Positions 580 to 30,742 of a stretch of 30,903 bases of DNA are shown piece by piece (position 1 is the first letter of the stretch; every line of letters begins with the position of its first letter). The stretch is from Chloroflexota bacterium. Its GTDB lineage: Bacteria; Chloroflexota; Anaerolineae; Promineifilales; Promineifilaceae. The notes under the pieces were generated by a model. The model was not told the origin of the DNA and did no database searches. It worked only from the letters and a program-made list of their open reading frames with translations. The position numbers and the translations under genes were made by a program. The stretch is from contig CAUJGI010000467.1 of NCBI GenBank assembly GCA_963169155.1, positions 1 to 30,903 of the forward strand. The letters are read 5' to 3'.

Positions 580-1239
580 GTGAAAGGATTACTAGGCACT
601 AAAGTGGGTATGGCCCAGGTTTTTGACGCAAGCGGTGAAGTTGCACCGGTCACGATCATTCAAGCCGGACCCTGCTACGTAACACAGGTTAAAACTGAGA
701 AGGCGGATGGCTATACGGCCGTACAAATCGGTTTTAGCGAAATTGCTGAAAAACGGTTGAGCAAAGGCCGACAGGGCCATCTGGGTCTCCTCAAAAAAGG
801 GAAGGGCCGTAAAAAAGCTCAAAATATTCCAGCCTTGCGCTACCTGCGTGAGTTCCGCACCAAAGATGCGGCCGAACACACCGTGGGACAGACTTTAACC
901 GTAGAGCAATTTGAAATTGGCGAACGCGTCGATGTAAGCGGGAAAACCAAAGGTAAAGGTTTTGCCGGTGCGGTCAAACGGTATGGCTTTGGGGGTGGTT
1001 CGAAGACCCATGGTCAGTCTGATCGGTGGCGCGCGCCAGGTTCCATTGGGGGTACTTCTGGTACCGGCCACGTGTTTAAGGGCAAACGTATGCCCGGCCG
1101 CATGGGCAACGATCAGTTTACCGCCCAGAACCTGGAAGTGATTCGTGTTGACGCCGAGCGTAACCTGATTGCCGTCAAAGGGCCGGTGCCCGGGGCAAAA
1201 GGCGCGCTCGTCGTAATTCGAAAAGCAGCAAAAGGCTAG
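580..1239 (+). CDS. rplC: 50S ribosomal protein L3 (GTG start)
   Basis: [44 protein letters not shown] motifs; GGAGG SD upstream. Confidence 0.99.
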
Positions 1240-1252
1240 CGGAGGCGTTGTG

Positions 1253-1918
1253 ATGAAAGTTTCAGTTTTCAACATGGCTGGCAAGGAAGTTAACAGCGTA
1301 GACCTTCCAGCTAGCATTTTTGAAGCAAAAATTAATCGTGATCTGATGCACCAGGCGTTGTTACGGCAGTTGGCCAATGCGCGCCAGGGTACACATAAAG
1401 CCAAAGGGCGTTCAGAAGTTAACCGGACCGGAGCAAAAGCTTACCGCCAAAAAGGTACCGGCAATGCCCGGCATGGTAGCAAAAAGGCGCCTATCTTTGT
1501 GGGTGGTGGTGTGGCCCATGGGCCGCTGCCGCGTAAATATACCAAACAGATGCCCCGAAAGATGCGTCGAGCGGCCCTGCGCTCTGCTTTGAGCGTGAAA
1601 GCCGGTAACGAAGCCATTGTGCTGGTAGATGATCTGACGCTGGATGCGCCGAAAACAAGCGACATGAAGCAGTTTGTGCAGACTCTGGTTGCCAATGGAA
1701 GTGCCCTGGTGCTTTTGCCTGGACGCAATGAGAACGTTGAGAAATCAACCCGTAACCTGGCGGACGTGAAAGCGCTGCAGGCCAGTTACCTGAACATTCG
1801 CGACCTGTTAGGTTATGACAAAATTGTGATACCGTTGGCGGCGCTGGATGTCATTACCAACTTCTTGGGCATCGAAGATGATTTTGAAGACGTTGATGAA
1901 TCTGGGGAGGAGGCATAA
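1253..1918 (+). CDS. rplD: 50S ribosomal protein L4
   Basis: RQGTHKAKGRSEV, RQKGTGNARHGS, GGGVAHGP motifs; ATG 1253 is 7 nt after GGAGG (GTG 1250 is an alternative); acidic C-terminal tail. Confidence 0.99.
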   Translation: MKVSVFNMAGKEVNSVDLPASIFEAKINRDLMHQALLRQLANARQGTHKAKGRSEVNRTGAKAYRQKGTGNARHGSKKAPIFVGGGVAHGPLPRKYTKQMPRKMRRAALRSALSVKAGNEAIVLVDDLTLDAPKTSDMKQFVQTLVANGSALVLLPGRNENVEKSTRNLADVKALQASYLNIRDLLGYDKIVIPLAALDVITNFLGIEDDFEDVDESGEEA

Positions 1919-1920
1919 TC

Positions 1921-2220
1921 ATGCAGCTGCATTGGCGTGAAGTGATTCGTCGCCCGGTGGTGACAGAAAAAAGCAGCTACAACGTGGATTTGAATAATCA
2001 ATACACGTTTGTGGTGAACTCGCGGGCGAATAAGATGCAGATCAAGCAGGCTATTGAATTGGCCTGGCCCGAAGTTTCTGTAGAAAAGATTCGCGTAGCG
2101 AATATGCCAGCCAAGCGGGCGCGTCGTTATCGGCGTGTTACCACGCGTAAGGTCGGTTGGAAAAAAGCGATTGTGACGTTGTCGCCTGGTGACAGTATCG
2201 ACTTGTTTGAGGGCGTTTAG
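1921..2220 (+). CDS. rplW: 50S ribosomal protein L23
   Basis: RPVVTEKS, YTFVV, KQAIE, WKKAIVTL motifs; position between rplD and rplB. Confidence 0.98.
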   Translation: MQLHWREVIRRPVVTEKSSYNVDLNNQYTFVVNSRANKMQIKQAIELAWPEVSVEKIRVANMPAKRARRYRRVTTRKVGWKKAIVTLSPGDSIDLFEGV

Positions 2221-2314
2221 CGTTTAGAAGTATGTGAGCAGGGATGAGGGCATTTGTCCGTCGGGGTTTTGTTCCTGAAGGGTAAAATGCCTGTAGCCCG
2301 TCTCTGGAGGAACT

Positions 2315-3172: not shown

Positions 3173-3454
3173 ATGTCTCGTTCGTTAAAGAAAGGTCCTT
3201 ACATTAATCCGAAACTGTTGAAGAAGGTTGAAGTGCTGAACGCGGCGAAAAAGCGTGAGGTAATTCGTACCTGGTCACGTTCTAGCACTGTGTTCCCGCA
3301 GATGGTAGGACATACGGTTGCTGTCTATGACGGCCGTCGCCATATTCCGATTTATATTACGGAGAATATGGTGGGGCATAAGCTGGGTGAATTTGCGCCC
3401 ACACGGACGTTCCGTGGTCATGTCAGCAAAGCTGAGAAGAAGGGGCGTCGTTAA
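3173..3454 (+). CDS. rpsS: 30S ribosomal protein S19
   Basis: [32 protein letters not shown] motifs. Confidence 0.99.
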
Positions 3455-3896: not shown

Positions 3897-4568
3897 TTGG
3901 GACGCAAAGTACATCCTGTTGGATTCCGTTTAAAAACAATTCGTGATTGGAACACGCGTTGGTTTGCTGAAGGGAAGCAGTACGAAGAACGCTTGCATGA
4001 GGATTTTGCCATCCGCAAACTCATCATGAAGGAAATGCCTTCGGCTGGTATTTCTTTGCTGGAGATCGAGCGCTTTCCCAATCAGGTTCAGGTAACCATT
4101 CATACGGCTCGTCCGGGTATTGTGATTGGCCGTAAGGGCGGTTCTGTTAAGGAACTGCGCGGTAAGCTGCGTGATTTGACTGACAAGGCGGTGAAGGTTG
4201 AGGTTGAAGAAATTTCTCAGCCAGACACCGATGCGCAGCTGATTGCTGAGAATATTGCGGGGCAACTGCAGCGCCGCATTTCGCACAGCCGGGCGATGAA
4301 GCGTGCCATTCAGCAGGCGATGCGCCAGGGTGCGGAAGGTGTTCGCATCGAGGTAAGCGGCCGTTTGGGTGGTTCTGAAATGGCCCGTAAAGAAAAGCTT
4401 TGGGACGGCCGTGTGCCGCGCAACACAATTCGGGCTGACCTGCAATATGGTTTTACCGAGGCCCTGACAACCTTTGGCCAGATTGGCGTGAAGGTGTGGG
4501 TCTACAAAGGTGAAATCCTGCCGCAGAAGACCGAATTTGAAGCCACGGACGTCTATATTAGTGAGTAA
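3897..4568 (+). CDS. rpsC: 30S ribosomal protein S3 (TTG start)
   Basis: GRKVHPVGFRL, RPGIVIGRKG, GRLGGSEMAR, GQIGVKVWVYKGE; GGAGG SD upstream. Confidence 0.99.
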   Translation: MGRKVHPVGFRLKTIRDWNTRWFAEGKQYEERLHEDFAIRKLIMKEMPSAGISLLEIERFPNQVQVTIHTARPGIVIGRKGGSVKELRGKLRDLTDKAVKVEVEEISQPDTDAQLIAENIAGQLQRRISHSRAMKRAIQQAMRQGAEGVRIEVSGRLGGSEMARKEKLWDGRVPRNTIRADLQYGFTEALTTFGQIGVKVWVYKGEILPQKTEFEATDVYISE

Positions 4569-5040: not shown

Positions 5041-5468
5041 TGGCAAATATTGTTGAATTACGTGGAATGAGTGACGCCAAGCTGGAAGAAATGTTGGAAA
5101 ACCGCCGCGAGGAGATGTTTAACCTGCGGTTCCAGGTAGCTTCATCCCGGCTGGAAGATTATACGCGGCTGAAGGCTGTACGACGTGAGATTGGACAGCT
5201 AGAGACCGTTTTGAACATGCGGCAACTGGCCATAGAAACGGCCGTTGCCAGCCCTGCCCTTGCCCAAGCCCTCGCGGGCAAAGAATGGGAAGCTTCGGCG
5301 CGTTTCAGCTACGAAGAAAGTGGTTGGCAGGTTACGTTTAAGGAAAAAGGTGGCAAAGAGCTGGGCACCGCTCTTGTGAATCTTAACAAGAAACGGCCGC
5401 ACGGTCGCCGCCAGGCCAAGAAGCAAAGCCAATCCCAGCGCGTTGTGTCCGCTGAGGTTGCAGGGTAG
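5040..5468 (+). CDS. rpmC: 50S ribosomal protein L29 with long C-terminal extension
   Basis: First ~64 aa match uL29 (ELRGMSDAKL, EMFNLRFQ, RLKAVRREIGQLETVL); position between rplP and rpsQ; 142 aa total, start overlaps rplP stop. Confidence 0.93.
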   Translation: MANIVELRGMSDAKLEEMLENRREEMFNLRFQVASSRLEDYTRLKAVRREIGQLETVLNMRQLAIETAVASPALAQALAGKEWEASARFSYEESGWQVTFKEKGGKELGTALVNLNKKRPHGRRQAKKQSQSQRVVSAEVAG

Positions 5469-6531: not shown

Positions 6532-7077
6532 GTGTTTACACCACTTAAAGAGCAGTACAAAAGCGAAGTGGTGCCGGCATTGATGAAAGAATTGAACTTT
6601 CATAGTGTGATGCAGGTACCGCGAATTACCAAGATTGTGATTAACGTTGGTTTGGGGGAGGCTTTGGACAATGCCAAAGCCATCGAGTTTGCGGTAAATG
6701 ATATTACCGCCATCACGGGCCAAAAACCGGTGTTGACCAAGGCGAAAAATTCAATTGCAGGCTTCAAGCTGCGCGAAGGTCGCGTGATTGGGCTAAAAGT
6801 TACCCTACGCGGCGAGCGGATGTGGTCTTTTCTGACCCGTCTCATTCATGTGGCGCTGCCCCGTACCCGTGACTTCCAGGGTATTTCCCCGGATTCGTTT
6901 GACGGCCGTGGCAACTACACTTTAGGCCTGCGCGAACAGTTGATTTTTCCGGAAATTGAATACGATCGGATTGACAAAATCCGTGGTATGGAAGTTAGCA
7001 TTGTAACCACTGCCCAGAAAGATGAAGAAGGGCGGCGTTTATTATCTATGTTGGGTATGCCCTTCTGGGAGAATTAG
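6532..7077 (+). CDS. rplE: 50S ribosomal protein L5 (GTG start)
   Basis: [48 protein letters not shown]. Confidence 0.99.
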
Positions 7078-7695: not shown

Positions 7696-8238
7696 ATGTC
7701 TCGCATTGGTAAAGCCCCCATTACTATTCCAAATGGGGTACAGATTGAAATGAAGAAAGGGTCTGTGAACGTAAAGGGCCCAAAGGGTCAACTGACCCAG
7801 GTAATTCATCCAGACATGCATTTAGAGCAGGAAGAAGGGGTGTTGTCGGTCAAACGGCCGTCTGACTCCCGTATTCATCGTTCTTTGCATGGTCTGACCC
7901 GCGCACTCGTGAACAACATGGTTGTTGGGGTGAGCAATGGTTTTTCTAAAGTTTTGGAGATCGAAGGTGTGGGCTACCGCGCTGAGATGGACGGACAAAC
8001 GCTGGTGCTGAACGTAGGTTATTCCCACCCGGTCCGCTTTGTGCCGCCCCAGGATATCTCCTTTGCGGTGGAAAATCGTAACAAAACCATCATTGTTTCC
8101 GGTATCGACAAACAAGTGGTGGGTGAAGTTGCAGCCAATATTCGCAAGCAGCGTCCCCCGGAACCCTATAAGGGCAAAGGCATTCGCTACCGGGGTGAAT
8201 ACGTGCGGCGTAAAGCCGGTAAGGCCGGTAAGGTTTAA
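7696..8238 (+). CDS. rplF: 50S ribosomal protein L6
   Basis: MSRIGKAPI, HGLTRALVNNMVVGVS, GVGYRA, PPEPYKGKGIRY. Confidence 0.99.
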   Translation: MSRIGKAPITIPNGVQIEMKKGSVNVKGPKGQLTQVIHPDMHLEQEEGVLSVKRPSDSRIHRSLHGLTRALVNNMVVGVSNGFSKVLEIEGVGYRAEMDGQTLVLNVGYSHPVRFVPPQDISFAVENRNKTIIVSGIDKQVVGEVAANIRKQRPPEPYKGKGIRYRGEYVRRKAGKAGKV

Positions 8239-8251: not shown

Positions 8252-8614
8252 ATGGCTATTAAATCAAAAGTTGCACGCAAACGACGCCATCAGCGAATTC
8301 GTACCAAAATATCGGGCAGTGCCGAACGGCCGCGTTTGAACGTATTCCGTAGCCTGGATCACATTTACGCGCAGGTCATTGATGATGTGGCGGGCAAGAC
8401 ACTCGTTTCTGCTTCCACTGTTGATAAGGCGTTGCGGGTTGACGTTGCCGGGAAAACCAAGAAAGAGCAGGCCGCATTGGTGGGCAAAGCAATAGCTGAG
8501 CGGGCCAAGGCGGCTGGGGTGACAACCGTTCTGTTTGACCGGGGTGGCTATTTGTATCACGGCCGTATCAAGGCCCTGGCCGACGGTGCTCGTGAAGGTG
8601 GTCTCGATTTCTAA
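8252..8614 (+). CDS. rplR: 50S ribosomal protein L18
   Basis: [43 protein letters not shown]. Confidence 0.99.
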
Positions 8615-9904: not shown

Positions 9905-11281
9905 ATGATCGAATCAATGAGAGCTGCCTTTTCACTGCCAGACCTGCGCCGCCGAATTTTGTTTACGGTGATGATCCTGGTCATTTATCGCCTGGTGGCC
10001 AATATCCCGGTTCCGGGGGTTGACCTGAGTGCCTGGTTGGCGTTCACCAGCAGCAGCACCACAAATCAGGTTGTTAATTTTCTGGATTTGCTGTCTGGTG
10101 GTGCTGTTCGTAACTTCTCCGTTATGGCTATGGGGGTATACCCGTACATCACGGCGTCGATTATTATCCAGTTGCTCACTCCCATTATCCCGCAGCTGCA
10201 GGAAATGGACTCTGAAGGTGAGTCTGGCCGGAATCGGAAAAACCGCATCACTTACTTTTTGACCGTGCCGTTGTCCTTGCTCCAGGCCATTGGTCAAATT
10301 CGACTGGTTGGCTTTAGCCTGGGCGCTGGTGGCGCTGATGGTCTGGCCCAAATTATGCCGAACTTCGGCTTTTCGCCTGAGCAGCTGCTGCCGACGTTTA
10401 CAACCTTATTGGCTATGATGGGTGGCACGATGTTTGCCATCTGGATGGGCGAACTGATTACCGAAGATGGTATTGGGCAAGGCATTTCCCTGATCATCTT
10501 TGGCGGTATTGTGGCCCAAATTTTACCGGGTATTGCCGGTTTGTTTTCTCTTGACGACGTGACGGCCCGAATCTTTACCATTGTTGCCTTCTTGCTCATT
10601 ACGGTACTGACCATTTTTGTCATTGTGATTGTGCAAGAAGGACAGAGACGAATACCAGTGCAATACGGCCGTCGTGTACGCGGTCGTAAGGTGTACCAGG
10701 GCCAAAGCAGCTACGTGCCACTGAAGGTCAATACCGCAGGGATGATCCCGATCATCTTTGCCAACTCGATTTTGATTTTCCCATCTGTGTTGGCCGGTTT
10801 GTTCATCAGTGGCAATGGCGGTTTTGTGGACACCGTGGCGACGGCCGTTAGCCGTTTTGGCAATGCGGATCCATCCGTAGCGCCGATTGGCTTTACGCTT
10901 TACTGGCTGTTCTTCTTCATCCTGGTCGTTGGTTTCACCTTCTTCTACACGGACGTGATGGTGCGCCAGCAAAACATTCCGCAGACGTTGCAGCGGCAGG
11001 GTGGGTTCATCCCGGGTATTCGTCCGGGTAAACGGACCGAGGATTACATTACCAAAGTAGTGCGTCGCATCACCCTTGCAGGTGCCGTTTTCCTGGGTGT
11101 TATCGCCGTTTTGCCCGGTATCATGCAGCTGTTGGGCGTGATTTTGAATATTCCGGGCATTGAGCAAAGCACGCTGGTCATTAGCGGCTCGGGGTTGATC
11201 ATTGTGGTTGGTGTCGTCATTGACACGATGCGACAGCTGGAATCGCAGCTGCTCATGCGTCAGTACGAGGGCTTCTTCTAA
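9905..11281 (+). CDS. secY: Preprotein translocase subunit SecY
   Basis: Polytopic membrane protein; SVMAMGVYPYITASII, WMGELIT..GIGQGISLIIF, PLKVNTAGMIPIIFA, GGFIPGIRPGK.T. Confidence 0.99.
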   Translation: MIESMRAAFSLPDLRRRILFTVMILVIYRLVANIPVPGVDLSAWLAFTSSSTTNQVVNFLDLLSGGAVRNFSVMAMGVYPYITASIIIQLLTPIIPQLQEMDSEGESGRNRKNRITYFLTVPLSLLQAIGQIRLVGFSLGAGGADGLAQIMPNFGFSPEQLLPTFTTLLAMMGGTMFAIWMGELITEDGIGQGISLIIFGGIVAQILPGIAGLFSLDDVTARIFTIVAFLLITVLTIFVIVIVQEGQRRIPVQYGRRVRGRKVYQGQSSYVPLKVNTAGMIPIIFANSILIFPSVLAGLFISGNGGFVDTVATAVSRFGNADPSVAPIGFTLYWLFFFILVVGFTFFYTDVMVRQQNIPQTLQRQGGFIPGIRPGKRTEDYITKVVRRITLAGAVFLGVIAVLPGIMQLLGVILNIPGIEQSTLVISGSGLIIVVGVVIDTMRQLESQLLMRQYEGFF

Positions 11282-11862
11282 TGAAAACCTTTGTTGTCTT
11301 TATGGGCGCTCCCGGAGCCGGTAAGGGAACTCAGGCCAAACGCCTGGAATCCTCGCTGGGGCTGCCACAGGTAGCAACAGGCGATTTGTTCCGAGCAAAC
11401 TTAAAAAATCAGACCGAACTTGGCAAGCTGGCTCGCACCTACATGGATAAAGGTGAGCTGGTGCCTAACGAGGTGACCATTGCGATGGTGCGTGACCGGT
11501 TGTCACAGTCTGACTGTGAATCGGGGGCAATCCTGGACGGATTTCCCCGTACACTGGCTCAGGCCGAGGCGCTTGACGAGCTTTTGAAGGAGTTCGACGC
11601 CAAAATCGCCGTGGTCCCTTATATTCACGTGGCTCAGGATGTTCTGGTAAAGCGGCTGGCTAAGCGGGCTGAGATTGAGGGTCGTGCTGACGATAACGAA
11701 GAAACCATTCGCACCCGGATGCAGGTGTATGAGTCTGAGACGGCACCACTGCTGGATTATTACGAGAATCGTGGGTTGCTGGTCAAAATAAATGGCGAGC
11801 AATCCATTGATGAGGTAAGTGCTGAGCTGACGGCCGTCATTCGGCAAGAGATGTTAAACTAA
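11281..11862 (+). CDS. adk: Adenylate kinase, short-LID type
   Basis: P-loop GAPGAGKGTQ, MDKGELVP, ILDGFPRT, GRADDNEETI; lacks the large LID domain; 1-nt overlap with secY stop. Confidence 0.98.
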   Translation: MKTFVVFMGAPGAGKGTQAKRLESSLGLPQVATGDLFRANLKNQTELGKLARTYMDKGELVPNEVTIAMVRDRLSQSDCESGAILDGFPRTLAQAEALDELLKEFDAKIAVVPYIHVAQDVLVKRLAKRAEIEGRADDNEETIRTRMQVYESETAPLLDYYENRGLLVKINGEQSIDEVSAELTAVIRQEMLN

Positions 11863-12565: not shown

Positions 12566-12646
12566 TTTTAGTTGATTTGTTGGGGGGATACGGCCGTTGC
12601 CTGGCAACAGCCGCCCCACCGCAAAGTTAAGGTTTTAGGAGACGGA

Positions 12647-13171: not shown

Positions 13172-13813
13172 TTGGCAAGGTATATTGGTCCGGTATGTAA
13201 GCTTTGTCGCCGCGAAGGCGAAAAGCTGTTTCTGAAAGGGTCGCGTTGTTTGACGCCCAAATGCTCATTTGAGCGTCGGTCATATCCCCCCGGGGAACAT
13301 GGTCGTGACAATCAGTTCCGTCGGGGACGTGCTTCAGACTATTTGCTCCAGCTGCGTGAAAAGCAAAAGGCGCGTCGTATTTATGGTGTGCTGGAGCGTC
13401 AGTTTAATCGTTATTTCCGTCGCGCTACACAGCGGGTTGGTCTGACGGGTACAAACCTGTTGGTCATCCTGGAAACACGGCTCGATAACGTCGTCTATCG
13501 GCTGGGTTGGGCGGATTCTCGCGCTCAGGCCCGGCAGCTGGTGCAGCATGGCCACGTGACGATTAACGGCCGTAAAACAGGCGTGCCATCTGCTCTGGTT
13601 TCTGCTGGAGATGTGGTGTCGATTCGCCCGGAAAGTATGCGAAAAACTTATTTTAAGACGCTGCGCGAAGATTTGGATGATCGGCAAGTCCCACGTTGGC
13701 TGAACCTGGACGTGCGCAATATTTCCGCGAAAGTCGTGAATTTACCTGCTCGTGATGACATTGATGTCACCATTAATGAGCAGCTTGTTGTTGAATATTA
13801 CTCCCGGCGGTAA
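13172..13813 (+). CDS. rpsD: 30S ribosomal protein S4 (TTG start, zinc-finger type)
   Basis: [53 protein letters not shown]; GGAGG at 13162-13166. Confidence 0.98.
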
Positions 13814-14821: not shown

Positions 14822-14856
14822 GTAACGGCCGTTCCCCCACAAATGAGGTATACATC

Positions 14857-19347: not shown

Positions 19348-21173
19348 CCCCTCGTCGCTTCCTTCCGCCAGCTAGAAACCGTTTCGTTGTATCTGGGCGA
19401 CTGGTGGCGGAAGTACGTGTCGTATAGTTCGGCGTAATGCCCGGCCTGTTTCATCAGGCTGTCGTGGCTGCCTTCCTCGATGATGCGCCCTTTTTGCAGC
19501 ACGATGATGCGGTCGGCGGCGCGCACCGTGGAGAGGCGGTGGGCGATGATGATGGCCGTGCTGTTGGCCATGATCAGGTTCAGCGCCTGCTGAATCTGCG
19601 ATTCGGTGAAGGGATCCACGCTGGCAGTGGCTTCATCCAGCACAAAGATGCGCGGTGACTGCACCAGCACCCGCGTCAGGGCCACCAGCTGGCGCTGCCC
19701 CATCGAAAGGCGGCTGCCGCGCTCACCCACTTCGCTGTCCAGGCCGTTGGGCAGCGTTTCCAGCCATTCCCCTTCGCCAACGCGCCGGGCCATTGCTTCG
19801 ATTTCAGCGTCGCTGGCTTCGGGACGGCCGTAGCGAATATTCTCCGCCACCGTGCCGTCAAATAAAAACGGGGCCTGAGACACAATGCCAATCTGCCGCC
19901 GGAAGGCCGTCAGGTCAAAGCTGCGGATGTCCTGCCCATCGATGCAAATTTCACCTTCCTGGAACTCGTAATAACGGGCAATGAGCTTGATGATGCTCGA
20001 CTTGCCTGCACCGGTGTGCCCGACCAGGGCAACACTTTCTCCCGGGGCGATATGCAGCGAAAAGTCGTCCAGCACCTGCTCTTGCTCGGAGTAGCGGAAA
20101 GAGACATGGTCAAAGACGATGTCGCCGCGTAAATTTTGGGGCTTTATGCTGCCGGTCTGGCGTACGGCCGTTGCCGCATCCATCAGCGCAAACACCCGCT
20201 CCGACGCTGACAGCCCGGCCTGGAACTGGCTCCAAAAGGCAGACAGATTAGTCAGCGGGAACCAGAATCGATCAATCGTGGCCACAAACAGATACCAGGC
20301 CGCCACGGTAATCGCCCCCGCCACGGCGCTGCGTCCACCAAAATAGATGAGAACGGCCGTACCAATCCCCGACAAAATATTTAGCGTAGGGAAAATATTG
20401 GCAATCACAAACCCGCGTCGTACGTTGATACCGTACGCTTGTTTGTTCACGTCCATAAACTCTTCATAGATGGCCTGCTCTTGCCGAAAGTTTTTGGCTA
20501 CCCGCACCCCAGTCACCGACTCTTGAATCGCTTTGTTCACCTCACCCATCGCCCGCGAGCCTTGCTGCGTGACCTTTCGCGCCAGGTTGCGGAAGGTCAG
20601 GGCCGCCACGATCACAAATGGAGCCATCGCCAGCACCAGCAGCGTCAGACGCCAGTCGATGGCGAACAGGGTCACAATTAAAATCAGCGCTACCGCCAGC
20701 TGGTTGATGACATCGGTGCTGAGCACGATCACCTCACCAAACTCCTGCGTGTCGCTGGTGATCCGGCTGACAATGCGGCCCGAACTGAACTCATCGTAAA
20801 ACGACAAATCCTGCCGGGCGGCCGCGGAAAAGGTGTCCTGGCGCATGGCCAGAATGACATCGGCAATCACTTCTGAGGTGAGCTGGCGGCGCACCCAGTT
20901 CAGCCCCCAGTTGCCAATGCCCGTGACAAACACCACGCCGATGAGCAGCGGTACCAGCCGATCATCCGTGCCGCGGGTCATCACGTTCACGCTGTTGGAC
21001 ACAATCAACGGCAGCGCCGCCCCGGCTAACGCCATGAGGAAGATGCAGAGGGAAATAATGATTACTTTGCGCCGGTGTGGGCGGAAGTAGCTTAAAATGC
21101 GCCGTAAAAGCTCTTTGTCTTTGTACTGGCGATCATAGGCCTCAGCTTCTAGGCCACGGGTGACGGCTGCCAT
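19335..21173 (-). CDS. ABC exporter half-transporter (fused TMD-NBD, MsbA/multidrug-like)
   Basis: N-terminal TM helices; Walker A GHTGAGKSS, signature LSMGQRQL, Walker B IFVLDEAT, D-loop ASVD, H-loop IAHRLST. Confidence 0.95.
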   Translation of the reverse strand: MAAVTRGLEAEAYDRQYKDKELLRRILSYFRPHRRKVIIISLCIFLMALAGAALPLIVSNSVNVMTRGTDDRLVPLLIGVVFVTGIGNWGLNWVRRQLTSEVIADVILAMRQDTFSAAARQDLSFYDEFSSGRIVSRITSDTQEFGEVIVLSTDVINQLAVALILIVTLFAIDWRLTLLVLAMAPFVIVAALTFRNLARKVTQQGSRAMGEVNKAIQESVTGVRVAKNFRQEQAIYEEFMDVNKQAYGINVRRGFVIANIFPTLNILSGIGTAVLIYFGGRSAVAGAITVAAWYLFVATIDRFWFPLTNLSAFWSQFQAGLSASERVFALMDAATAVRQTGSIKPQNLRGDIVFDHVSFRYSEQEQVLDDFSLHIAPGESVALVGHTGAGKSSIIKLIARYYEFQEGEICIDGQDIRSFDLTAFRRQIGIVSQAPFLFDGTVAENIRYGRPEASDAEIEAMARRVGEGEWLETLPNGLDSEVGERGSRLSMGQRQLVALTRVLVQSPRIFVLDEATASVDPFTESQIQQALNLIMANSTAIIIAHRLSTVRAADRIIVLQKGRIIEEGSHDSLMKQAGHYAELYDTYFRHQSPRYNETVSSWRKEATRGGNR

Positions 21174-21251: not shown

Positions 21252-22145
21252 TCATAAAATTCGCTGGCCCAGCAAGGACGCAGCCAGTTCAACGGCGAGT
21301 TCGGCCGTGCGGTTCATCGTGTCCAGGATGGGGTTGATTTCCACAATGTCCATCGACTGCACCCGGCCGCTGTCGCCCAGGATTTCCATGAGCAGGTGGG
21401 CTTCCCGGTAGCTGAGGCCGCCGGGAACGGCCGTTCCTACCCCAGGCGCTTCATCCGGGTCCAGGCTGTCCATGTCCAAACTCACGTGAATGCGCGAGAA
21501 GTGGCGCAGCCGATCAATTGCCTGCCGGGCCACGCTGGCCATGCCCATTTCATCCAAATGGCGCATGGTAAAGACGCTGATGCCGCTGCGGGCCAGCCGT
21601 TCTCGCTCTTCATTGTCCAGATCGCGAATGCCAATCTGCACAATCTGGCGCGGCTTCAGCTTGGCTCCCGGTGTGCCCACGTTCACCAGCGATTCCGGCC
21701 CTTCGCCTACCAGCACCGCCACGGGCATCCCGTGAATATTGCCGCTGGGCGAACTTTGCGGCGTGTTAAAGTCGCCGTGAGCATCAACCCAGATCACCCC
21801 CAGTGATTCGTCCTGCGATGCGGCGGCAATTGAGCCGATGCTGATGCTGTGGTCACCGCCCAAAAAGATGGCAAATTCCTCGGCCGTCACACATTTGCGG
21901 GCAATGTCGTAGATGTTCTGGCAAACGGCCGTCACCGTCTTCAACCGCCGCGCCCCCGATTGGGCCACATCTTCTTCTGGGTTAGGCACCGCAACGTTGC
22001 CTTCGTCAAAAACGGTGTGCCCCAGCCGCTCCAGCCGACCTTGCAGCCCGGCATAACGCGCCGCGCTGGGACCCATGTCCACGCCGCGCCGACTTTGTCC
22101 CAAATCCATGGGAACACCAATGATCCGAACTTTTCGCTTGTGCAA
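21252..22145 (-). CDS. rocF: Arginase (TTG start)
   Basis: [78 protein letters not shown]. Confidence 0.96.
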
Positions 22146-24520: not shown

Positions 24521-25540
24521 ATGTCATCCACCTTGCTGCACAACCACCTGCTACCCTGGCCCGCCGACTGGACGGCCGTTTTTAACCGTGAAGCGCCCCT
24601 GCTGATCGAAATTGGCTTTGGCGGGGGTCACTTTTTGGTGGACCTGGCCCAGAAACGGCCGTCGGCCAACGCGCTGGGGGTCGAAATTTCCTTGCCCGCG
24701 TTGGACAAGGCACAGCGTAAGGTGCAAACAGCCGGGTTGAGCAACGTGCGGGTGCTGCAAAGTGATGCCCGGTATTTGCTCCAGGTGTTGTGCGCCCCAG
24801 AATCTATCGCCGAGATAACCATCAACTTTCCCGATCCGTGGCCTAAGGCCAGGCAGCTGCACCGCCGCCTGATCGATGTGGAATTTTTGCACCTGCTGGC
24901 CACGCGGTTGAAACCCGGCGGCCTGCTGGACATCGCCACGGACCACGCCGATTATGCCCTGGCCATCACCGAAGCGCTGGAAACAACGCCATTTTTCGAC
25001 AGCCGACTGGCGACTACGTTTGTGACGGAAGACACCGAGCGGCTGCGTACCAAATATGAGCAAATCGGCCTGGACGAAGGGCGCACCTGCCATTACTACA
25101 AATGGGTGCGCAACAACACGGCCGCCCCCAACGATTTTCCCATCCCCAAGGAGTTCCCCATGCCCCACGTTGTGCTGCACACCCCCATGGATTTAGACGC
25201 GATTCAGGCGCGCTACGGCCGTAGGCGCACCAGCGACCAGGCGCGCCATATCAGTTTTATGGAGCTGTTCCGCGCCCACGAGGGTGAGGCGCTGTTTGTG
25301 GAGACGTACATCAAGGAAGAGCCCGTGTCGCAGCGATTGGGGCTGGTGATTCGCCAGCGGGAGCCGGGTAACTATGTTATCAGCCTGCACGAGTTGGGCT
25401 TTCCCCGGGCCACGGCGGGGGTGCAGCTGGCAATTGCCGCCCTGGCCCGCTGGCTGCTGAGCCTGGACGAGGCGGCCCACATCTTACACCACAATTTGCC
25501 TGGCGAAATGCTGGAAGTGGACGTGACCCATGCAGCTTGA
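24521..25540 (+). CDS. trmB: tRNA (guanine-N7)-methyltransferase TrmB with C-terminal extension
   Basis: EIGFGGG, LGVEIS, NFPDPWPK...HRRL, L.PGG...ATDH..Y, TKYE; extra ~110 aa C-terminal; start set at ATG 24521. Confidence 0.92.
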   Translation: MSSTLLHNHLLPWPADWTAVFNREAPLLIEIGFGGGHFLVDLAQKRPSANALGVEISLPALDKAQRKVQTAGLSNVRVLQSDARYLLQVLCAPESIAEITINFPDPWPKARQLHRRLIDVEFLHLLATRLKPGGLLDIATDHADYALAITEALETTPFFDSRLATTFVTEDTERLRTKYEQIGLDEGRTCHYYKWVRNNTAAPNDFPIPKEFPMPHVVLHTPMDLDAIQARYGRRRTSDQARHISFMELFRAHEGEALFVETYIKEEPVSQRLGLVIRQREPGNYVISLHELGFPRATAGVQLAIAALARWLLSLDEAAHILHHNLPGEMLEVDVTHAA

Positions 25541-28070
25541 CCTGGAACTATACCGCGAAGAGGCCCAGGTTGAGGCGGATGTGCAGATTAGCTACATTCG
25601 CATTGCCCCGGAACGGCCGCTGCACACCATGCTCTTTATTCACGGCTTTGGCGGCCGTTCCCGCCAGTGGCGCTACCAGATTGAGCAGTTTGCCATTCAC
25701 AACGAGATTATTGCCATTGATTTGCGTGGGCACGGCCGTTCCTCGCGGCCGGGGCATGGCTACGACATGGATCGCATTCTGGCGGACATAATGGCTGTGC
25801 TGCGGCGCTGCGATGTGAATCGGCCGTTTGTGGTGCTGGGGCATTCCTACGGCGTGGCGATGGCCACCGAGCTGGCCTGGCGCTACCCGGAGCGGGTGAG
25901 CCACCTCATTTTGATTGCCGGGGCGGGCGAATACAAAATCTCGCCTGCCTACCAATTGATGTTCCGCCTGCCGGAGACGCTGCTGCGGCTGCTGCAGCCC
26001 GTGGCCAACCGGGTGATGGATGCGTCGCTGTACGCCTTGCAGGAGATGTACCTGCACAACCTGCGCCACTGGCGCGGCTGGGACAAATTTCCGCAGCTGA
26101 AGCCGCCCACGATGGTGATTTTGGGCAACAAAGACCGGGTTTTGCCCCAATCTGCCTTTGAACGGGTGGGGGAGCTGGTGCCGGAAGGGTCTGAAGTGAT
26201 CAACGTGGGCGTTTCGGCACACATGGTGATGCTGGAGCGGCGTGACGCGGTGAACCGGGCAATTGAGCGCTTTTTGGACGGGGAAACGGCCGCCGCTACC
26301 TACTCCCGCTGGCGCAGCGATGCCGAAACAGGGGGGCGCGGTGGTTTGTCGGCGGAACGGCCGTGGCTGGCGAGTTTTGAAACGGCCGTACCGCCCACTA
26401 TCGACATTCCCCGCCTGCCGCTCAACCGGCTGTTGGACCGGGCGTGGCGACGCTTTCCCAACCGGCCCGCCATTCATTTTATGGGGTACAAGCTCAGCTA
26501 CCGTTCGCTGAGCGCCCAGGCGGGCCGTTTTGCCAACGGGCTGCTGTCGTTGGGCGTGAAGAAGGGGACGCGGGTGATGCTGCTGCTGCCTAACGTGCCG
26601 CACCTGGTGATTGCCTACTACGGCACCCTGCGCCTTGGCGGCATTGTGGTGATGGCCAATCCGCTGGATCCGGCGGCGGAGGTGGTGCGCGAGGCCAATG
26701 CTTCGGGGGCGGAGGTGCTGGTGACGTTGGGGCGCTTTCGCGAAACGGCCGTTCAGGTCAAAGCCCAATCCGGCGTACGCCACGTCATTTTTGCCAGCCT
26801 TACCGATTACCTGCCGCTGCCCAAGCGGCTGATGGCGGCGCTGCTGCCCGCGCAGCGCACGGCCGATCGGCCGCCCAGCCTGCCCGGCGCAGCTGACTTT
26901 GCCTGGCGCGGCTGGCTGCGCAAATTCCGACCCCAGCCGCCTAAAATGGAAGTACGGGCGGAGGATACGGCCGTCATCCAGTTCACCAGCGGCACCACGG
27001 GCAAGCCGAAGGGGGTGGTGCTGAGCCATTACAACCTGGTGGCCAACACGATGCAGGTGCGCCTCTGGCTGACCGACACGCGGGACGGGCAGGAGGCGAT
27101 GTTGTGCGTGGTGCCGTTTAGCCACGTCTACGGCATGACCTCGGCGATGAACCTGGCGGTGAGCCTGGGGGCCAGCATGATTCTGCTGCCGCTCTTCGAC
27201 ACGGAAGAGGTGCTGCACACTATCCGCCGCTACCGGCCGACGCTCTTTCCCGGCGTTCCGGCGATGTACGTGGCGCTTAACAATTTCCCCGGCGTGCGCA
27301 AATTTGGCATTGAGTCGATTCGCGCCTGCATCAGCGGGGCGGCACCGCTGCCGATTGAGGTGAAAGAAACGTTTGAGAAGCTGACCAAGGGTAAGTTGGT
27401 GGAAGGTTACGGCCTGAGTGAAGCCAGCCCGGTGACCCATGCCAATCCGATTAACGGCCGTCACAAGGTAGGTTCGATTGGCCTGCCGCTGCCCAGCACC
27501 GAGGCGCGCATTGTGGATTTGAAGACGGGACGGCCGTTGGCCGCCGGGCAAATCGGCGAGCTGATCATTCGCGGGCCGCAGGTGATGCGCGGTTACTGGG
27601 AGGATGAAGCAGCCACGCAGGAAGTCCTGGACAAAGATGGCTGGCTGCACACCAACGATGTGGCCCGCATGACCGAGGACGGTTACTTCCAGATTATCAG
27701 TCGGCGGCAGGACATCTGGACGGGGGAAGACAGCGGCCTGGCCTTTCCGCGCGATGTGGAAGAGGTGGTTTACGAGCTGCCCGAGGTGCGCGAGGTGGTG
27801 GTGGTGGGCATTGCCAACCAGCCGGTGGCCTTTGTCAGCCTGAAGGAAAAGACGCGTTTGCCTGCCAAAACCATCATTTCGTTTTGTGAGCGGCGGCTGC
27901 CGCCCAGCCAGGTGCCCCGGCTGGTGATTTTTGTGAAGGAGTTCCCACGCAGCTTCATTGGCAAGGTGCTGCGGCGTGAGCTGGTGTCGCAGTATCAGCA
28001 GCAAATTATGGCCGAGGGGGGCAGCGTGGGGCAGCATCTGGCGGGGTTGGAGGATACAGCCGTCGAATAA
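25530..28070 (+). CDS. Fusion: alpha/beta-hydrolase (Ser nucleophile) plus long-chain acyl-CoA ligase (AMP-binding)
   Basis: FIHGFGG, DLRGHGRS, GHSYG, GNKD, AHMVMLE; then FTSGTTGKPKGV, HVYG, GYGLSEASP, GELIIRGPQVM.GYW, GKVLRREL; overlaps trmB end by 11 nt. Confidence 0.92.
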   Translation: MQLDLELYREEAQVEADVQISYIRIAPERPLHTMLFIHGFGGRSRQWRYQIEQFAIHNEIIAIDLRGHGRSSRPGHGYDMDRILADIMAVLRRCDVNRPFVVLGHSYGVAMATELAWRYPERVSHLILIAGAGEYKISPAYQLMFRLPETLLRLLQPVANRVMDASLYALQEMYLHNLRHWRGWDKFPQLKPPTMVILGNKDRVLPQSAFERVGELVPEGSEVINVGVSAHMVMLERRDAVNRAIERFLDGETAAATYSRWRSDAETGGRGGLSAERPWLASFETAVPPTIDIPRLPLNRLLDRAWRRFPNRPAIHFMGYKLSYRSLSAQAGRFANGLLSLGVKKGTRVMLLLPNVPHLVIAYYGTLRLGGIVVMANPLDPAAEVVREANASGAEVLVTLGRFRETAVQVKAQSGVRHVIFASLTDYLPLPKRLMAALLPAQRTADRPPSLPGAADFAWRGWLRKFRPQPPKMEVRAEDTAVIQFTSGTTGKPKGVVLSHYNLVANTMQVRLWLTDTRDGQEAMLCVVPFSHVYGMTSAMNLAVSLGASMILLPLFDTEEVLHTIRRYRPTLFPGVPAMYVALNNFPGVRKFGIESIRACISGAAPLPIEVKETFEKLTKGKLVEGYGLSEASPVTHANPINGRHKVGSIGLPLPSTEARIVDLKTGRPLAAGQIGELIIRGPQVMRGYWEDEAATQEVLDKDGWLHTNDVARMTEDGYFQIISRRQDIWTGEDSGLAFPRDVEEVVYELPEVREVVVVGIANQPVAFVSLKEKTRLPAKTIISFCERRLPPSQVPRLVIFVKEFPRSFIGKVLRRELVSQYQQQIMAEGGSVGQHLAGLEDTAVE

Positions 28071-28567: not shown

Positions 28568-28632
28568 AAGGAGGCAAGGTGTGGGTGCAGGACAATTGGT
28601 CGATACGGCCGTTTCCCCGCCCGGCTTGCACT

Positions 28633-28683: not shown

Positions 28684-28722
28684 TGCCGCACGGCCGTTGT
28701 AAGCATGCCAAATCAAACAAAC

Positions 28723-28860
28723 GGGAAACTTCATGAGTGGATTCACCACCACGAATGAAAGAGACACAGATAAACTCAGATATTTATCAGCGTTCATCTG
28801 TGTGAATCAGTGTCCTATTTTCAAGGGAGACTTCATGAGTGGTCTCACCACCACAGATGA
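28723..28860. repeat. Two 36-bp direct repeats flanking an imperfect decamer inverted array
   Basis: GGGAAACTTCATGAGTGGATTCACCACCACGAATGA (28723-58) vs GGGAGACTTCATGAGTGGTCTCACCACCACAGATGA (28825-60), 31/36 identical; 66-nt insert GACACAGAT AAACTCAGAT..ATCAGCGTTC ATCTGTGTGA ATCAGTGTC. Confidence 0.8.
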
Positions 28861-28866
28861 GAATTT

Positions 28867-28913
28867 GTAGCCCGATTTACCAAATCGGGCGGCGATTTAC
28901 CAAATCGCCCTAC
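28867..28913. repeat. Inverted doublet of GTAG-tagged REP-like palindromes
   Basis: GTAG-CCCGATTT-ACC-AAATCGGG-C-GGCGATTT-ACC-AAATCGCC-CTAC. Confidence 0.75.
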
Positions 28914-28933
28914 ATTTTCACAGGAGAATGAAT

Positions 28934-30742
28934 ATGAGCCAGGTAAAAACAGAGCTGCCCCACTGGGATTTTAGCACGGTGTTTCCCGGGTTGGATTCGC
29001 CGGAATTTGCCTCCGGTTTCCAGGCGGTGATTGACGCGATTGCCGGGTTGGTCACTTTTTATGATGAGCATGGGATCAACCGGTTGGATACGGCCGTGCC
29101 CGTTGACGACCAGTTGGTTAGCCTGTTTGACACCATCATCAAGCGCACCAACGCCGTTGATGAGCAGGGCCAGACGCTGCAGGCGTACCTGTACGGTTTT
29201 CTCACCACCGATTCGCGCAACAACGAGGCCCAGGCGCGGCTCAGTGAACTGATGCCGCACCTCTCCCGCTTTGCCCTGCTGCACACCCGGCTGACCGCCT
29301 GGATTGGCTCGCTGGACGTGGAGCTGCTGCTGGAAAAATCGGCCGTGGCCCAGGCACACGAATACATGCTGTCCCGGGCGCGGCAGGAAGCGCTGCACCT
29401 GATGTCGCCTGAGCAAGAAGATTTGGCCGCGGAGCTGTCGCTGACGGGCAGCAGCAGCTGGTACCGGCTGTTTAATGATTACACCTCGCAAATCAAGGTC
29501 AACATTGAACGCGACGGCCAGGTGGAGGCGATGCCGCTGACGGCGGCGCAAAACCTGGCTTTTGACCCGGATCGAGCGGTGCGGGCCCAGGCGCACCAGG
29601 CGGTTTTGGATGCGCTGGCCGCCGCGTCTGTTCCTATTGCCGCTTGCCTGAACAGCCTGAAAGGCGAAACGTTAACCCTGGTGCGGCGGCGCGGCTGGAA
29701 GTCGCCCTTGGAGATGGTGCTTTTTGCCAACGCCATCGACCAGGCCACCCTCGACGCGATGATGACGGCCACGCGTAACGCTTTCCCCGATTTTCAGCGT
29801 TACCTGAAGGCGCGGGCAAGGGCGCTGGGGCTGCCCAAGCTGGCCTGGTATGATCGGCTGGTGCCGCTGGGGCAGGGAGAACAAAGCTGGGCCTACCAGG
29901 ACGCCACCAGCTTTGTGCTGGCCCAGTTTGGCACCTACTCGCCCAGAATGCGCCGCCTGGCGGAACGCGCTTTTGCCGAGAACTGGATTGATGCCGAGCC
30001 GCGTGATGGCAAGCGGGGCGGGGCGTTTTGCATGGGGCTGCGCGCCGACGAGAGCCGCATCCTGGCCAATTTTGAGCCGGGTTTCTCTGGGGTGAGCACG
30101 CTGGCGCATGAACTGGGGCACGCCTACCACAATTTGTGCCTGGCGGAGCGCACGCCGCTGCAGAAAGAGATGCCGATGACGCTGGCGGAGACGGCCAGCA
30201 CGTTTTGCCAGAAGATTGTGGAGAATGCGGCGTTAAAAACGGCCGTGCCCCAGGACCAGCTCATCATCATCGACGGGGTATTGGAGTATGCCGCCCGGGT
30301 GGTGTTGGGGGCCAGCAGCAACTTCATGTTTGAGCAGAAGTTGTTTGAAAAGCGGCAGGAGCGTGAACTGTCGGTAGAAGAGCTGTGCGCCCTGGACGAA
30401 GAAACCCAGCTGGCGGCCCTGGGCGATGCGCTGGAAGATGGCTCGCTGCATCCGTACCGCTGGGCTTACGTGCCGCACTACTACGGCGCCACGTATTACA
30501 ATTTCCCCTATACCTTTGGCTTGCTGTTTGGTTTGGGATTGTATGCGCAGTATCAGGCCGATCCGGAGCCGTTCAAAACGGGCTACGACGAGCTGCTGGC
30601 GATGACGGGCATGAGCAACGCCGCCGACCTGGCCAACCGCTTTGGCATCGACATCCGCAGCACCGCCTTCTGGGAAGCGAGCCTGGACGTGCTGCGGGCG
30701 GATGTGGACCGATTTGAGCGGTTGGTGGACGAACTTAAGTAA
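28934..30742 (+). CDS. pepF: M3B-family oligoendopeptidase F
   Basis: WDFSTVFPG, WIDAEPRDGKRGGAFC, zinc motif TLAHELGHAYH, LAETASTF, HYY..TYYNFPYTFG.L; ATG 28934 best spaced from GGAG (28928 alternative). Confidence 0.94.
   Translation: MSQVKTELPHWDFSTVFPGLDSPEFASGFQAVIDAIAGLVTFYDEHGINRLDTAVPVDDQLVSLFDTIIKRTNAVDEQGQTLQAYLYGFLTTDSRNNEAQARLSELMPHLSRFALLHTRLTAWIGSLDVELLLEKSAVAQAHEYMLSRARQEALHLMSPEQEDLAAELSLTGSSSWYRLFNDYTSQIKVNIERDGQVEAMPLTAAQNLAFDPDRAVRAQAHQAVLDALAAASVPIAACLNSLKGETLTLVRRRGWKSPLEMVLFANAIDQATLDAMMTATRNAFPDFQRYLKARARALGLPKLAWYDRLVPLGQGEQSWAYQDATSFVLAQFGTYSPRMRRLAERAFAENWIDAEPRDGKRGGAFCMGLRADESRILANFEPGFSGVSTLAHELGHAYHNLCLAERTPLQKEMPMTLAETASTFCQKIVENAALKTAVPQDQLIIIDGVLEYAARVVLGASSNFMFEQKLFEKRQERELSVEELCALDEETQLAALGDALEDGSLHPYRWAYVPHYYGATYYNFPYTFGLLFGLGLYAQYQADPEPFKTGYDELLAMTGMSNAADLANRFGIDIRSTAFWEASLDVLRADVDRFERLVDELK

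Follow-up and report, generated by a model that had tools for sequence, protein, structure and literature searches.

A highly iterated palindrome with a strand-polar compositional footprint in the Promineifilaceae (phylum Chloroflexota)

Introduction

What makes one eight-letter palindrome, ACGGCCGT, recur throughout a bacterial genome, in genes and spacers alike? The question is raised by a 30,903-bp stretch of DNA, referred to below as the window, which is contig C467 of a Chloroflexota genome assembly (G000; 4.58 Mb, 838 contigs, 57% GC, 75% complete). An original prediction, made from the window alone, held that the word is a highly iterated palindrome (HIP) resembling HIP1 of the cyanobacteria and that methylation of CGGCCG or GGCC, coupled to repair, might drive it. 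The first part of this prediction is almost certainly right: ACGGCCGT is a palindrome of the same class as HIP1. The second part found no support, as no enzyme was found that co-varies with the word; since the specificities of such enzymes are not readable from sequence, methylation keeps a small probability. The analysis also uncovered a feature that had not been predicted, a strand-polar skew in base composition on both sides of the word.

To our knowledge HIP1 has been known, since 1995, from cyanobacteria only. Its origin and function are debated; methylation-directed repair, chromosome architecture and a signal for DNA uptake have all been considered. The HIP1 word is GCGATCGC, and alternate HIPs are found in some cyanobacterial lineages (PMC4390886). 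Cyanobacterial HIPs reach 300-2,700 copies per Mb with observed/expected (O/E) ratios of 55-228 (Elhai 2015, PMC4390886, Table 2), their deviations by one nucleotide (nt) are biased to the first and last positions, and a methyltransferase specific for the word or its core was reported wherever the word is abundant (PMC4390886). HIP1 sites are more conserved between species than control words and show a kilobase-scale periodic spacing, from which a role in chromosome architecture was proposed (Xu et al. 2018, PMC5861425).

The host was placed through the SecY protein encoded in the window, which is 99% identical to that of an Anaerolineae metagenome-assembled genome (MAG) and 90-95% identical to those of Candidatus (Ca.) Leptofilum and 'Ardenticatenaceae'/Promineifilaceae MAGs. 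By these identities the host is assigned to the Anaerolineae, family Promineifilaceae, near Ca. Leptofilum, and the genus in which most comparisons below were made (g1) is Leptofilum.

Abundance of the palindrome

Exact copies of ACGGCCGT number 40 in the window, against 0.82 expected and a maximum of 4 in 100 dinucleotide-preserving shuffles of it. The original prediction had listed 39, every one at a correct coordinate, and had overlooked the copy at 19014; its estimate that over half of the CGGCCG hexamers carry the A and T flanks is also accurate (40/77, 52%). Genome-wide the word occurs 7,458 times in G000, that is once per 614 bp or 1,629 times per Mb. It ranks first among all octamers, and the octamers ranked next are its own overlaps. 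The Markov O/E ratio is 66 at order 0, 76 at order 1, 43 at order 2 and 22 at order 3. No other GC-rich palindromic octamer is comparably frequent, as the runner-up among palindromic octamers has 654 copies.

The excess also outlasts control for codon usage. With genes called by a home-made gene caller, 6,033 genic copies were counted. Shuffling synonymous codons within genes, which leaves the proteins unchanged and draws on codons whose frequencies the word has itself already raised, left 840 +/- 30 copies (a 7-fold excess), and shuffling codon order left 142 +/- 11 (a 42-fold excess). About 80% of the copies lie inside genes, and the density is similar in coding (1.66/kb) and non-called DNA (1.46/kb). 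Genic copies fall in all three frames (3,072, 2,063 and 898), with frame 0, which reads Thr-Ala-Val (TAV), accounting for about half. The window shows the same mixture, with 21 TAV, 11 [NDHY]GR, 4 xRPx and 4 intergenic copies, and thus agrees with the predicted occurrence in all frames. Three of the four copies named as intergenic (14825, 28605 and 28690) are so and the copy at 3330 also lies outside genes, but the status of the fourth, 12590, is uncertain, being inside a called open reading frame (ORF) that starts at TTG 12572.

Anatomy and conservation of the word

The full word makes up 60% of all CGGCCG in G000. Variants that differ from it by one nucleotide are scarce at the six inner positions (24-156 copies each) and reach higher numbers at the two outer ones (121-831). 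A longer form, AACGGCCGTT, accounts for 28% of the copies, and the weak extended consensus GGnAACGGCCGTTnCC is itself palindromic. The distance between neighbouring copies is near exponential and slightly over-even, with a coefficient of variation of 0.95, 0.45-0.7 of the expected number of spacings below 40 bp and about 0.8 above 1.5 kb. Otherwise it is a bare 8-bp word and not part of any longer repeat. Repetitive extragenic palindromes (REP), bacterial interspersed mosaic elements (BIME) and miniature inverted-repeat transposable elements (MITE) were rejected on three grounds, namely the genic position of most copies, a minimum free energy that barely differs between real and chimeric flanks (-12.5 and -12.1 kcal/mol) and an origin by point substitution. 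A hairpin or cruciform element was likewise rejected; mirrored positions pair no more often than their marginals predict, real and chimeric arms are 0.4 kcal/mol apart, and neither arm covariation nor site-specific arm pairing was detected around the copies. Loci rich in the CGGCCG core were also searched for other flanked variants of it. There were none, and these loci belong to plain high-GC genomes.

The copies are held in place between species. In 157 kb aligned between G000 and Ca. L. proximum (G010) at 84.5% identity, 206 sites are in common and 22 + 26 are unshared, which amounts to a retention of 89-90% as compared to 35% for all 8-nt windows in the same alignments. An alignment of the secY region from 72 taxa extends this to nucleotide identities of about 68%, with single columns carrying the word in up to 42 taxa. 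Taxa that lack the word encode the same amino acids by another spelling, for example ATGGGCGG for Tyr-Gly-Arg, and the sites arise by point substitution at orthologous columns.

The effect of the word on the proteome of G000 is pronounced. Of the tripeptide contexts that can be spelled with it, TAV uses the word in 95% of cases, [NDHY]GR in 85% and xRP[FLSYCW] in 60%. The tripeptides are themselves over-represented (O/E 5.9 for TAV, 5.5 for NGR, 2.8 for DGR and 2.5 for YGR), whereas their permutations are close to 1. There is thus little doubt that a directional force acting at the level of DNA writes ACGGCCGT by point substitutions into genes, in all frames and both orientations, and into spacers, at about 1.6 copies per kb. 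The same force, through selection or biased conversion, very probably overrides codon choice and to some extent protein sequence, and holds the sites across species.

Distribution among relatives and a mirror word

Among 31 relatives, the word reaches 1.2-1.7 copies per kb in all 14 species of the genus and in two further genera, is intermediate in two genera and is at background in other families. When the order was surveyed with a decamer (143 genomes, 46 genera), about 15 genera were found to be hyper-abundant and several intermediate, while g18, g23, g28, g29, g41 (19 genomes), g44, g45 and the family f2 are at background. Density can also vary within a genus, the octamer ranging from 0.28 to 1.2 per kb in g27, where G058, G063 and G069 have 1.1-1.2 per kb and G060, G066 and G068 have 0.3-0.5.

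A mirror word, TGCCGGCA, surfaced as a search control in which the pattern is read backwards, and turned out to be hyper-abundant in the genera g24 and g33. It has 8,850 copies in G050 (4.9 Mb) and 4,560-6,775 in three g33 genomes (G095-G097), where ACGGCCGT numbers 21-132. In 160 kb of G050 (C1:1-100000 and C2:1-60000), TGCCGGCA is the top octamer at 1.6 per kb and occupies 78% of GCCGGC cores. The trait can therefore be described, with a confidence close to certainty, as lineage-specific, quantitative and patchy within the Promineifilaceae, with two genera having replaced ACGGCCGT by TGCCGGCA.

Six HIP-class features are found in this system: abundance, dispersion as a bare word, independence of codons, conservation, outer-position bias and an alternate word. 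The predicted HIP1-like class is thus borne out by the rank, O/E ratio, dispersion, positional conservation, outer-position variant bias and palindromic extension of the word as well as by its replacement in sister genera.

A strand-polar composition footprint

Each chromosomal copy in G000 sits in a polar compositional environment in which the top strand has an excess of G over C 5' of the word and of C over G 3' of it. The 5' skew, (G-C)/(G+C), is +0.35 at 1-10 nt, +0.20 at 11-20, +0.10 at 21-30 and +0.05 at 31-60, falling to about 0.01 beyond 100 nt, and is mirrored on the 3' side. The window alone gives +0.27/-0.17, and the same footprint is present in Ca. L. proximum. Neither non-HIP NCGGCCGN (0.06) nor other GGCC sites nor any of six other palindromes show it.

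The skew is located mainly at third codon positions. Its size is equal in the three frames, when copies are oriented by gene sense, and at 1,064 intergenic copies, which excludes a coding effect as its source. The mirror word shows the same polarity, with flank values of +0.15/-0.11, +0.15/-0.08, +0.12/-0.09 and +0.05/-0.06 in G050. As the order of G and C in its core is opposite, the polarity belongs to the process and not to the word; this and the absence of skew at the control sites rule out an extension of the core G/C order or a general property of GGCC palindromes.

From site to site, the shifts of the two flanks are independent of each other (r = 0.05), and their joint distribution is the product of the marginals. 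The same sites have both flanks shifted, and on these grounds a model in which Okazaki priming skews one flank per site according to replichore was rejected. The skew recalls the GC and keto skew of replication in that G and T exceed C and A on one strand, mostly at silent sites. Unlike replication skew, it flips at thousands of 8-bp words, each with terminus-like polarity over 10-60 nt, and not twice per chromosome. Flanks diverge between species at the background rate, so that the footprint represents a pressure on composition and not a conserved sequence. In the 72-taxon alignment, old columns have a mirror skew of +0.13 where the word is present and -0.04 where it is absent.

The change in composition is simple. 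On the 5' side, at 4-fold degenerate sites, A.088, C.403, G.372 and T.137 become A.111, C.214, G.561 and T.114, with A+T unchanged. At codons ending in a pyrimidine (NNY sites) C drops from 0.60 to 0.42 and T is enriched, and at those ending in a purine (NNR sites) G climbs from 0.55 to 0.68. A single model with two weights, C multiplied by about 0.5 and G by about 1.5-1.8, fits all three classes of sites. This composition is what an asymmetric loss of cytosine on the two strands would leave.

Word and footprint come apart on mobile DNA. A scan of IMG/VR for pairs of copies 40-70 nt apart retrieved contigs in which ACGGCCGT reaches 3-4 per kb, a density above that of every host genome counted. 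The 100-kb contig IMGVR_UViG_3300033417_000002 (loci L151, L186 and L205) encodes ParA, an anti-repressor, a transglycosylase and an FtsK/SpoIIIE-like ATPase; L188, L134 and L145 are other IMG/VR loci rich in the word. The contig is certainly mobile and, given ParA, the FtsK-like ATPase and its other genes, may be conjugative or plasmid-like and not a strict phage. Across 330 mobile-element copies the mirror component of the skew is 0.07 as compared to 0.35 in the chromosome. Dense words with a near-zero skew mean that enrichment of the word and its footprint are separable, as expected if the word is acquired fast and the footprint accumulates slowly in the chromosome.

A possible nick and short-patch resynthesis at the word

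The footprint suggests, tentatively, that this HIP-class element anchors a frequent, strand-polar and short-range DNA transaction consisting of a nick at the word followed by short-patch resynthesis. In such a mechanism the word would be nicked, and about 10-30 nt of the nicked strand would be removed and resynthesized in the 5' to 3' direction, symmetrically on both strands. Template-directed repair over this short patch would restore the word or create it from near-cognate or mismatched versions, and this would produce its hyper-abundance, its conservation and the scarcity of inner 1-nt variants. On each strand the 5' flank would serve as a permanent template and the 3' flank would be repeatedly renewed. 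Cytosine loss would become fixed more quickly on the template side, while renewal would erase it on the other, giving a G-rich 5' and a C-rich 3' flank with only the weights of C and G changed. Resynthesis of this kind could account, at somewhat less than even odds, for the polarity, the 10-30 nt scale, the restriction of the change to C and G, the independence of the two sides, the equal polarity of the two words and the poor footprint of short-lived mobile DNA.

A more specific and more doubtful version is that HIPs are entry sites of a constitutive strand-polar short-patch resynthesis, for example the strand-discrimination nick of mismatch repair in bacteria without MutH, with an enzyme that would read ACGGCCGT in most Promineifilaceae and TGCCGGCA in two genera.

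Several observations weigh against nicking and resynthesis. A mutational asymmetry, a fixation bias and selection favoring G over C would all give the same stationary composition. At sites where G000 and G010 differ in having the word, the word-free ortholog keeps most of the skew (0.22/-0.15 vs 0.25/-0.20, n=48), and young words show +0.18 against +0.11 in their nearest word-free relatives (n=29, an underpowered test). The partial skew of these word-free sequences means that the skew might precede the word and not follow it. The skew of the alternate-word genome is flatter, staying near 0.15 out to 30 nt, and agrees less well with a very short patch. To change cytosine loss two-fold, the patch process must act at most sites in most generations. 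The enzymes are also missing: no nickase matching the word was found, Vsr is present in 0/14 genomes of the genus and in 14/143 of the order, where it is unrelated to the word, and no NotI-family nuclease was found in the relatives (NotI cuts GCGGCCGC), so that the NotI-like partner considered for the DUF1156-type orphan methyltransferase described below is absent from them. Among PF00145, PF01555, PF02384, PF02086 and the DUF1156 type, no member has a phyletic pattern matching the word.

Methylation and the search for an enzyme

In the model put forward by Elhai for HIP1, methylation directs a biased repair. Applied here, an orphan methyltransferase would mark CGGCCG or the outer A, and mismatch repair would convert near-cognate words. 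The outer-position bias of the 1-nt deviations is as in HIP1 (PMC4390886), and a switch of enzyme specificity would fit the alternate words of the sister genera. The original prediction had called for a methyltransferase of CGGCCG or GGCC specificity. No candidate tracks the word, and methylation-directed repair is accordingly an unlikely source of it.

One candidate was the only universal N4/N6 methyltransferase (PF01555), a 659-aa orphan conserved across the order and found in 13/14 genomes of the genus without a nuclease partner. It has a DUF1156-type signature, Zn-ribbon-like inserts and permuted motifs (DPMMGGGTT ... DPPY, with motif I about 390 residues before DPPY). The gene adjoins MoxR/DUF58 genes; it lies at L107:2610-4589 (-), which is G010:C2:1110612-1112588, with a partial copy at G000:C107:3-494 (-). 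DUF1156-type orthologues of 52-68% identity are, however, present in the HIP-free groups g28 (10/10), g41 (17/19), g45 (7/7) and f2 (3/3); searches of HIP-rich g3 (0/2) and of the alternate-word genera (0/4) found none. The enzyme is thus neither necessary nor sufficient.

C5 methyltransferases (PF00145) occur in 7/14 genomes of the genus, with none in the near-complete G010 or in G018, and are unsupported as the driver. Together with the lack of Vsr in the genus, this also rejects a Dcm/Vsr system. Dcm/Vsr very-short-patch repair of E. coli, through which CCWGG gains at the cost of near-cognate words, is nonetheless a close parallel to the proposed patch in combining a site-anchored nick with a short Pol I patch that turns near-cognate into cognate words on a length scale similar to the footprint. 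It differs in its enzymes and in degree, the enrichment of ACGGCCGT being one to two orders of magnitude above the level generally known for CCWGG. A C5 cytosine methyltransferase gene with a Vsr gene directly after it was noted at G050:C2:3160825-3161952. This pair is an unlikely driver, since the three g33 genomes have the same word without Vsr.

An orphan Dam is present in 18/18 relatives of the family, in 13/14 Leptofilum genomes and in scattered genera, flanked by housekeeping genes. The copy at L129:5545-6345 (-), which is G010:C1:1922547-1923344, is 55% identical to E. coli Dam, matches 2G1P with E = 2e-92 and has identical GATC-contact segments. As an E. coli-type GATC enzyme whose types occur both with the word and in HIP-free genera, it was rejected as the driver. 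No Dam was found in the 75% complete assembly G000, in which GATC is mildly under-represented (O/E 0.66), and two TGA codons break up the copy in G013. Among the relatives, gamma-class N6 methyltransferases occur sporadically. The four alternate-word genomes have no methyltransferase in common, and a restriction-modification-like pair of g33 is missing from G050 and G096.

Other explanations

A self-recognition signal for the uptake or recombination of incoming kin DNA, an idea lately put forward for HIP1, is also improbable, about as much so as methylation. The word would be selected for promoting transformation or recombinational repair, with the flank skew as a separate side effect. The uptake signal sequences (USS) of Haemophilus and the DNA uptake sequences (DUS) of Neisseria share with ACGGCCGT a density near one copy per kb, a rather regular spacing, within-clade conservation and a noticeable effect on encoded peptides. 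The density of 1-2 per kb, the deficits of spacings below 40 bp and above 1.5 kb and the over-representation of encoded tripeptides, a trait shared with the Haemophilus sequences, agree with such a signal. The clade's mobile elements carry more copies still, and ComEC is present. Known uptake sequences are, on the other hand, asymmetric words read in one orientation, unlike a perfect palindrome with a palindromic extension, and we know of no flank skew described for USS or DUS. ComEC is found with either word and equally in the HIP-free genome G113 of the family, and an uptake signal gives no account of the strand-polar footprint or of its lack on mobile elements. For HIP1 itself, an enhancement of transformation and a correlation with the machinery of competence have been reported (bioRxiv 10.1101/2024.09.10.611283; PMC13756078), which speaks for an uptake role.

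A site of break-initiated or Chi-like recombination is less probable again. Double-strand breaks would be made at the word, or a helicase-nuclease would be tamed there, and the resulting 3'-ended single strand would be loaded with RecA and favor G(T)-rich 5' flanks. The geometry fits, as the strand that would form the 3' tail is C-poor and G-rich, with T enriched at NNY sites; the polarity is identical for two unrelated words, and both sides are affected at every site. But known resection and Chi-stimulated tracts extend over hundreds of bases to kilobases, far beyond the 15-30 nt over which the skew decays. Cutting should moreover eliminate a site through conversion (the hotspot paradox), whereas 90% of the words are retained. 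The flanks show no raised divergence, and a cognate nuclease was not found.

It is very unlikely that the words form a dense array of binding sites for an abundant dimeric protein that prefers G-rich 5' flanks and serves nucleoid organization, condensin loading or a similar function. The palindromic core with its weak palindromic extension, the rather even spacing and the strong conservation would suit such an array, as would the architectural role proposed for HIP1 by Xu et al. (PMC5861425). A compositional preference that reaches 30-60 nt on each side, with free turnover of sequence, is unlike a protein footprint, copies on mobile elements lack the preference, and no candidate protein is known. 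Finally, a by-product of codon usage or amino-acid motifs, or an assembly artefact, has virtually no chance of being the answer and was refuted, in spite of the share of frame 0 among genic copies, by both shuffles, by an intergenic density close to that of coding DNA and by the presence of the word in 14/14 genomes of the genus, all assembled independently and some from long reads into 2-6 contigs.

Comparison with HIP1

The likeness to HIP1 is extensive. Both are GC-rich octameric palindromes, and ACGGCCGT, the top octamer of its genome, lies with its 1,629 copies per Mb and O/E of 66-76 within the ranges given by Elhai. The likeness extends to occurrence in all frames and in spacers beyond what codons explain, conservation between species, deviations at the outer positions, palindromic extensions and an alternate palindrome in relatives. 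The differences lie in the phylum, in another word and core (CGGCCG, with no GATC inside), in the lack of a cognate methyltransferase tied to the word, in a very strong effect on the proteome (95% of TAV) and in the strand-polar flank skew. The HIP1 study of Xu et al. 2018 (PMC5861425) never uses 'skew' for such a feature, and a paper on mammalian recombination hotspots (PMC7447979) applies the term to the binding of protein instead of to base composition. For 144 copies of HIP1 on 200 kb of a Stanieria plasmid the flank skew is 0.05 +/- 0.03, a non-significant value that concerns the plasmid only and is uninformative for chromosomes, because mobile elements lack the skew in the ACGGCCGT system too.

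A full-text literature search found no published description of ACGGCCGT hyper-abundance, and none of the best-ranked among 293 matches used the word in a relevant way. Nothing beyond a passing mention of both joined highly iterated palindromes with Chloroflexi, and nothing was found for Promineifil* with palindrom*. The analysis adds a model with two weights that holds across codon classes, the exclusion of four enzyme candidates throughout the order, and the mirror-word genera with their footprint of equal polarity.

The window and its genome

The window carries an S10-spc-alpha ribosomal protein cluster that includes secY; beyond it lie genes for MazG, an ABC exporter, a member of the arginase family and a solute-binding protein, then trmB, a hydrolase/AMP-ligase fusion and pepF. 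The copies of ACGGCCGT are listed in Table 1.

Table 1. The 40 copies of ACGGCCGT in the window. The word is palindromic and its strand is given as '.'; gene strands are in brackets. Taxa are those with the word at the same column of the 72-taxon alignment.
Position	Strand	Location	Frame	Taxa and remarks
715..722	.	rplC-like gene 580-1239(+)	0 (TAV)	
3330..3337	.	outside called genes		
4405..4412	.	gene 3897-4568(+)	1 (DGR)	
5238..5245	.	gene 5040-5468(+)	0 (TAV)	
6902..6909	.	gene 6532-7077(+)	1 (DGR)	
7854..7861	.	gene 7696-8238(+)	2 (KRPS)	23/72
8559..8566	.	gene 8252-8614(+)	1 (HGR)	27/72
10665..10672	.	secY 9905-11281(+)	1 (YGR)	36/72; non-HIP taxa: ATGGGCGG etc.
10841..10848	.	secY	0 (TAV)	9/72
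11830..11837	.	gene 11281-11862(+)	0 (TAV)	
12590..12597	.	5' edge of ORF 12572-13039(+), or spacer if real start later		12/72
13566..13573	.	gene 13148-13813(+)	1 (NGR)	42/72
13911..13918	.	gene 13853-14821(+)	1 (YGR)	27/72
14825..14832	.	intergenic		
17122..17129	.	MazG/methylase fusion gene 17007-18530(+)	1 (NGR)	
17460..17467	.	gene 17007-18530(+)	0 (TAV)	
17613..17620	.	gene 17007-18530(+)	0 (TAV)	
18288..18295	.	gene 17007-18530(+)	0 (TAV)	
18603..18610	.	ORF 18600-19259(+)		strand of real gene uncertain
19014..19021	.	ORF 18600-19259		overlooked in original prediction
19053..19060	.	ORF 18600-19259		
19824..19831	.	ABC transporter gene 19335-21173(-)	1 (YGR)	
20164..20171	.	gene 19335-21173(-)	0 (TAV)	
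20353..20360	.	gene 19335-21173(-)	0 (TAV)	
21427..21434	.	arginase-family gene 21252-22145(-)	0 (TAV)	
21925..21932	.	gene 21252-22145(-)	0 (TAV)	
24572..24579	.	trmB-like gene 24458-25540(+)	0 (TAV)	
24655..24662	.	gene 24458-25540(+)	2 (KRPS)	
25215..25222	.	gene 24458-25540(+)	1 (YGR)	
25732..25739	.	hydrolase/AMP-binding gene 25530-28070(+)	1 (HGR)	
26357..26364	.	gene 25530-28070(+)	2 (ERPW)	
26382..26389	.	gene 25530-28070(+)	0 (TAV)	25 bp after 26357 copy, smallest spacing in window
26745..26752	.	gene 25530-28070(+)	0 (TAV)	
26967..26974	.	gene 25530-28070(+)	0 (TAV)	
27454..27461	.	gene 25530-28070(+)	1 (NGR)	
27530..27537	.	gene 25530-28070(+)	2 (GRPL)	
28605..28612	.	intergenic		
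28690..28697	.	intergenic		
29090..29097	.	pepF-like gene 28928-30742(+)	0 (TAV)	
30239..30246	.	gene 28928-30742(+)	0 (TAV)	

Positions 18572-19259 hold long ORFs that overlap on opposite strands, 219 aa (+) and 224 aa (-), with three copies of the palindrome inside; a scan of the minus-strand ORF gave no Pfam match. In the product of the gene at 25530-28070 (+), 846 aa long, an alpha/beta-hydrolase domain is fused to an AMP-binding (acyl/aryl-CoA ligase-like) enzyme; the start of this gene and the stop of the trmB-like gene overlap.

Avoidance is strong for several GC-rich hexamer palindromes in G000 (O/E CTCGAG 0.06, GCCGGC 0.18, GGGCCC 0.20, GGCGCC 0.24 and CCCGGG 0.31), which looks like the footprint of restriction systems, past or present; CTAG has an O/E of 0.50. 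Synteny within the genus is heavily scrambled, as the counterparts of 8 kb of G010 lie on different contigs and in different regions of five congeners. In G010, a stretch of some 1.5 kb (L118:4246-5753; C2, ~1,184,246-1,185,753) has at least 18 matches of 68-70% identity in the genome G009 and probably represents an insertion sequence family.

Significance

The palindrome provides an independent second case of a HIP, in another phylum and with a different word, and its strand-polar footprint adds evidence for a directional DNA transaction anchored at such words. The thousands of extra Thr-Ala-Val, Asn-Gly-Arg and Asp-Gly-Arg tripeptides illustrate the power of a DNA-level force to rewrite protein. 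In practice, the word offers a compositional marker with which these abundant wastewater filaments can be binned and mobile elements assigned to them. HIP-rich and HIP-poor species within one genus, HIP-free genera and two genera that switched words offer natural contrasts that make the question of origin tractable by comparison. If HIPs are indeed entry sites of a constitutive short-patch resynthesis, the same machinery would saturate the genome with the word by biased conversion and leave the mirror G/C footprint, and the 30-year-old puzzle of HIP1 would become one of repair-driven genome writing, legible from sequence alone.

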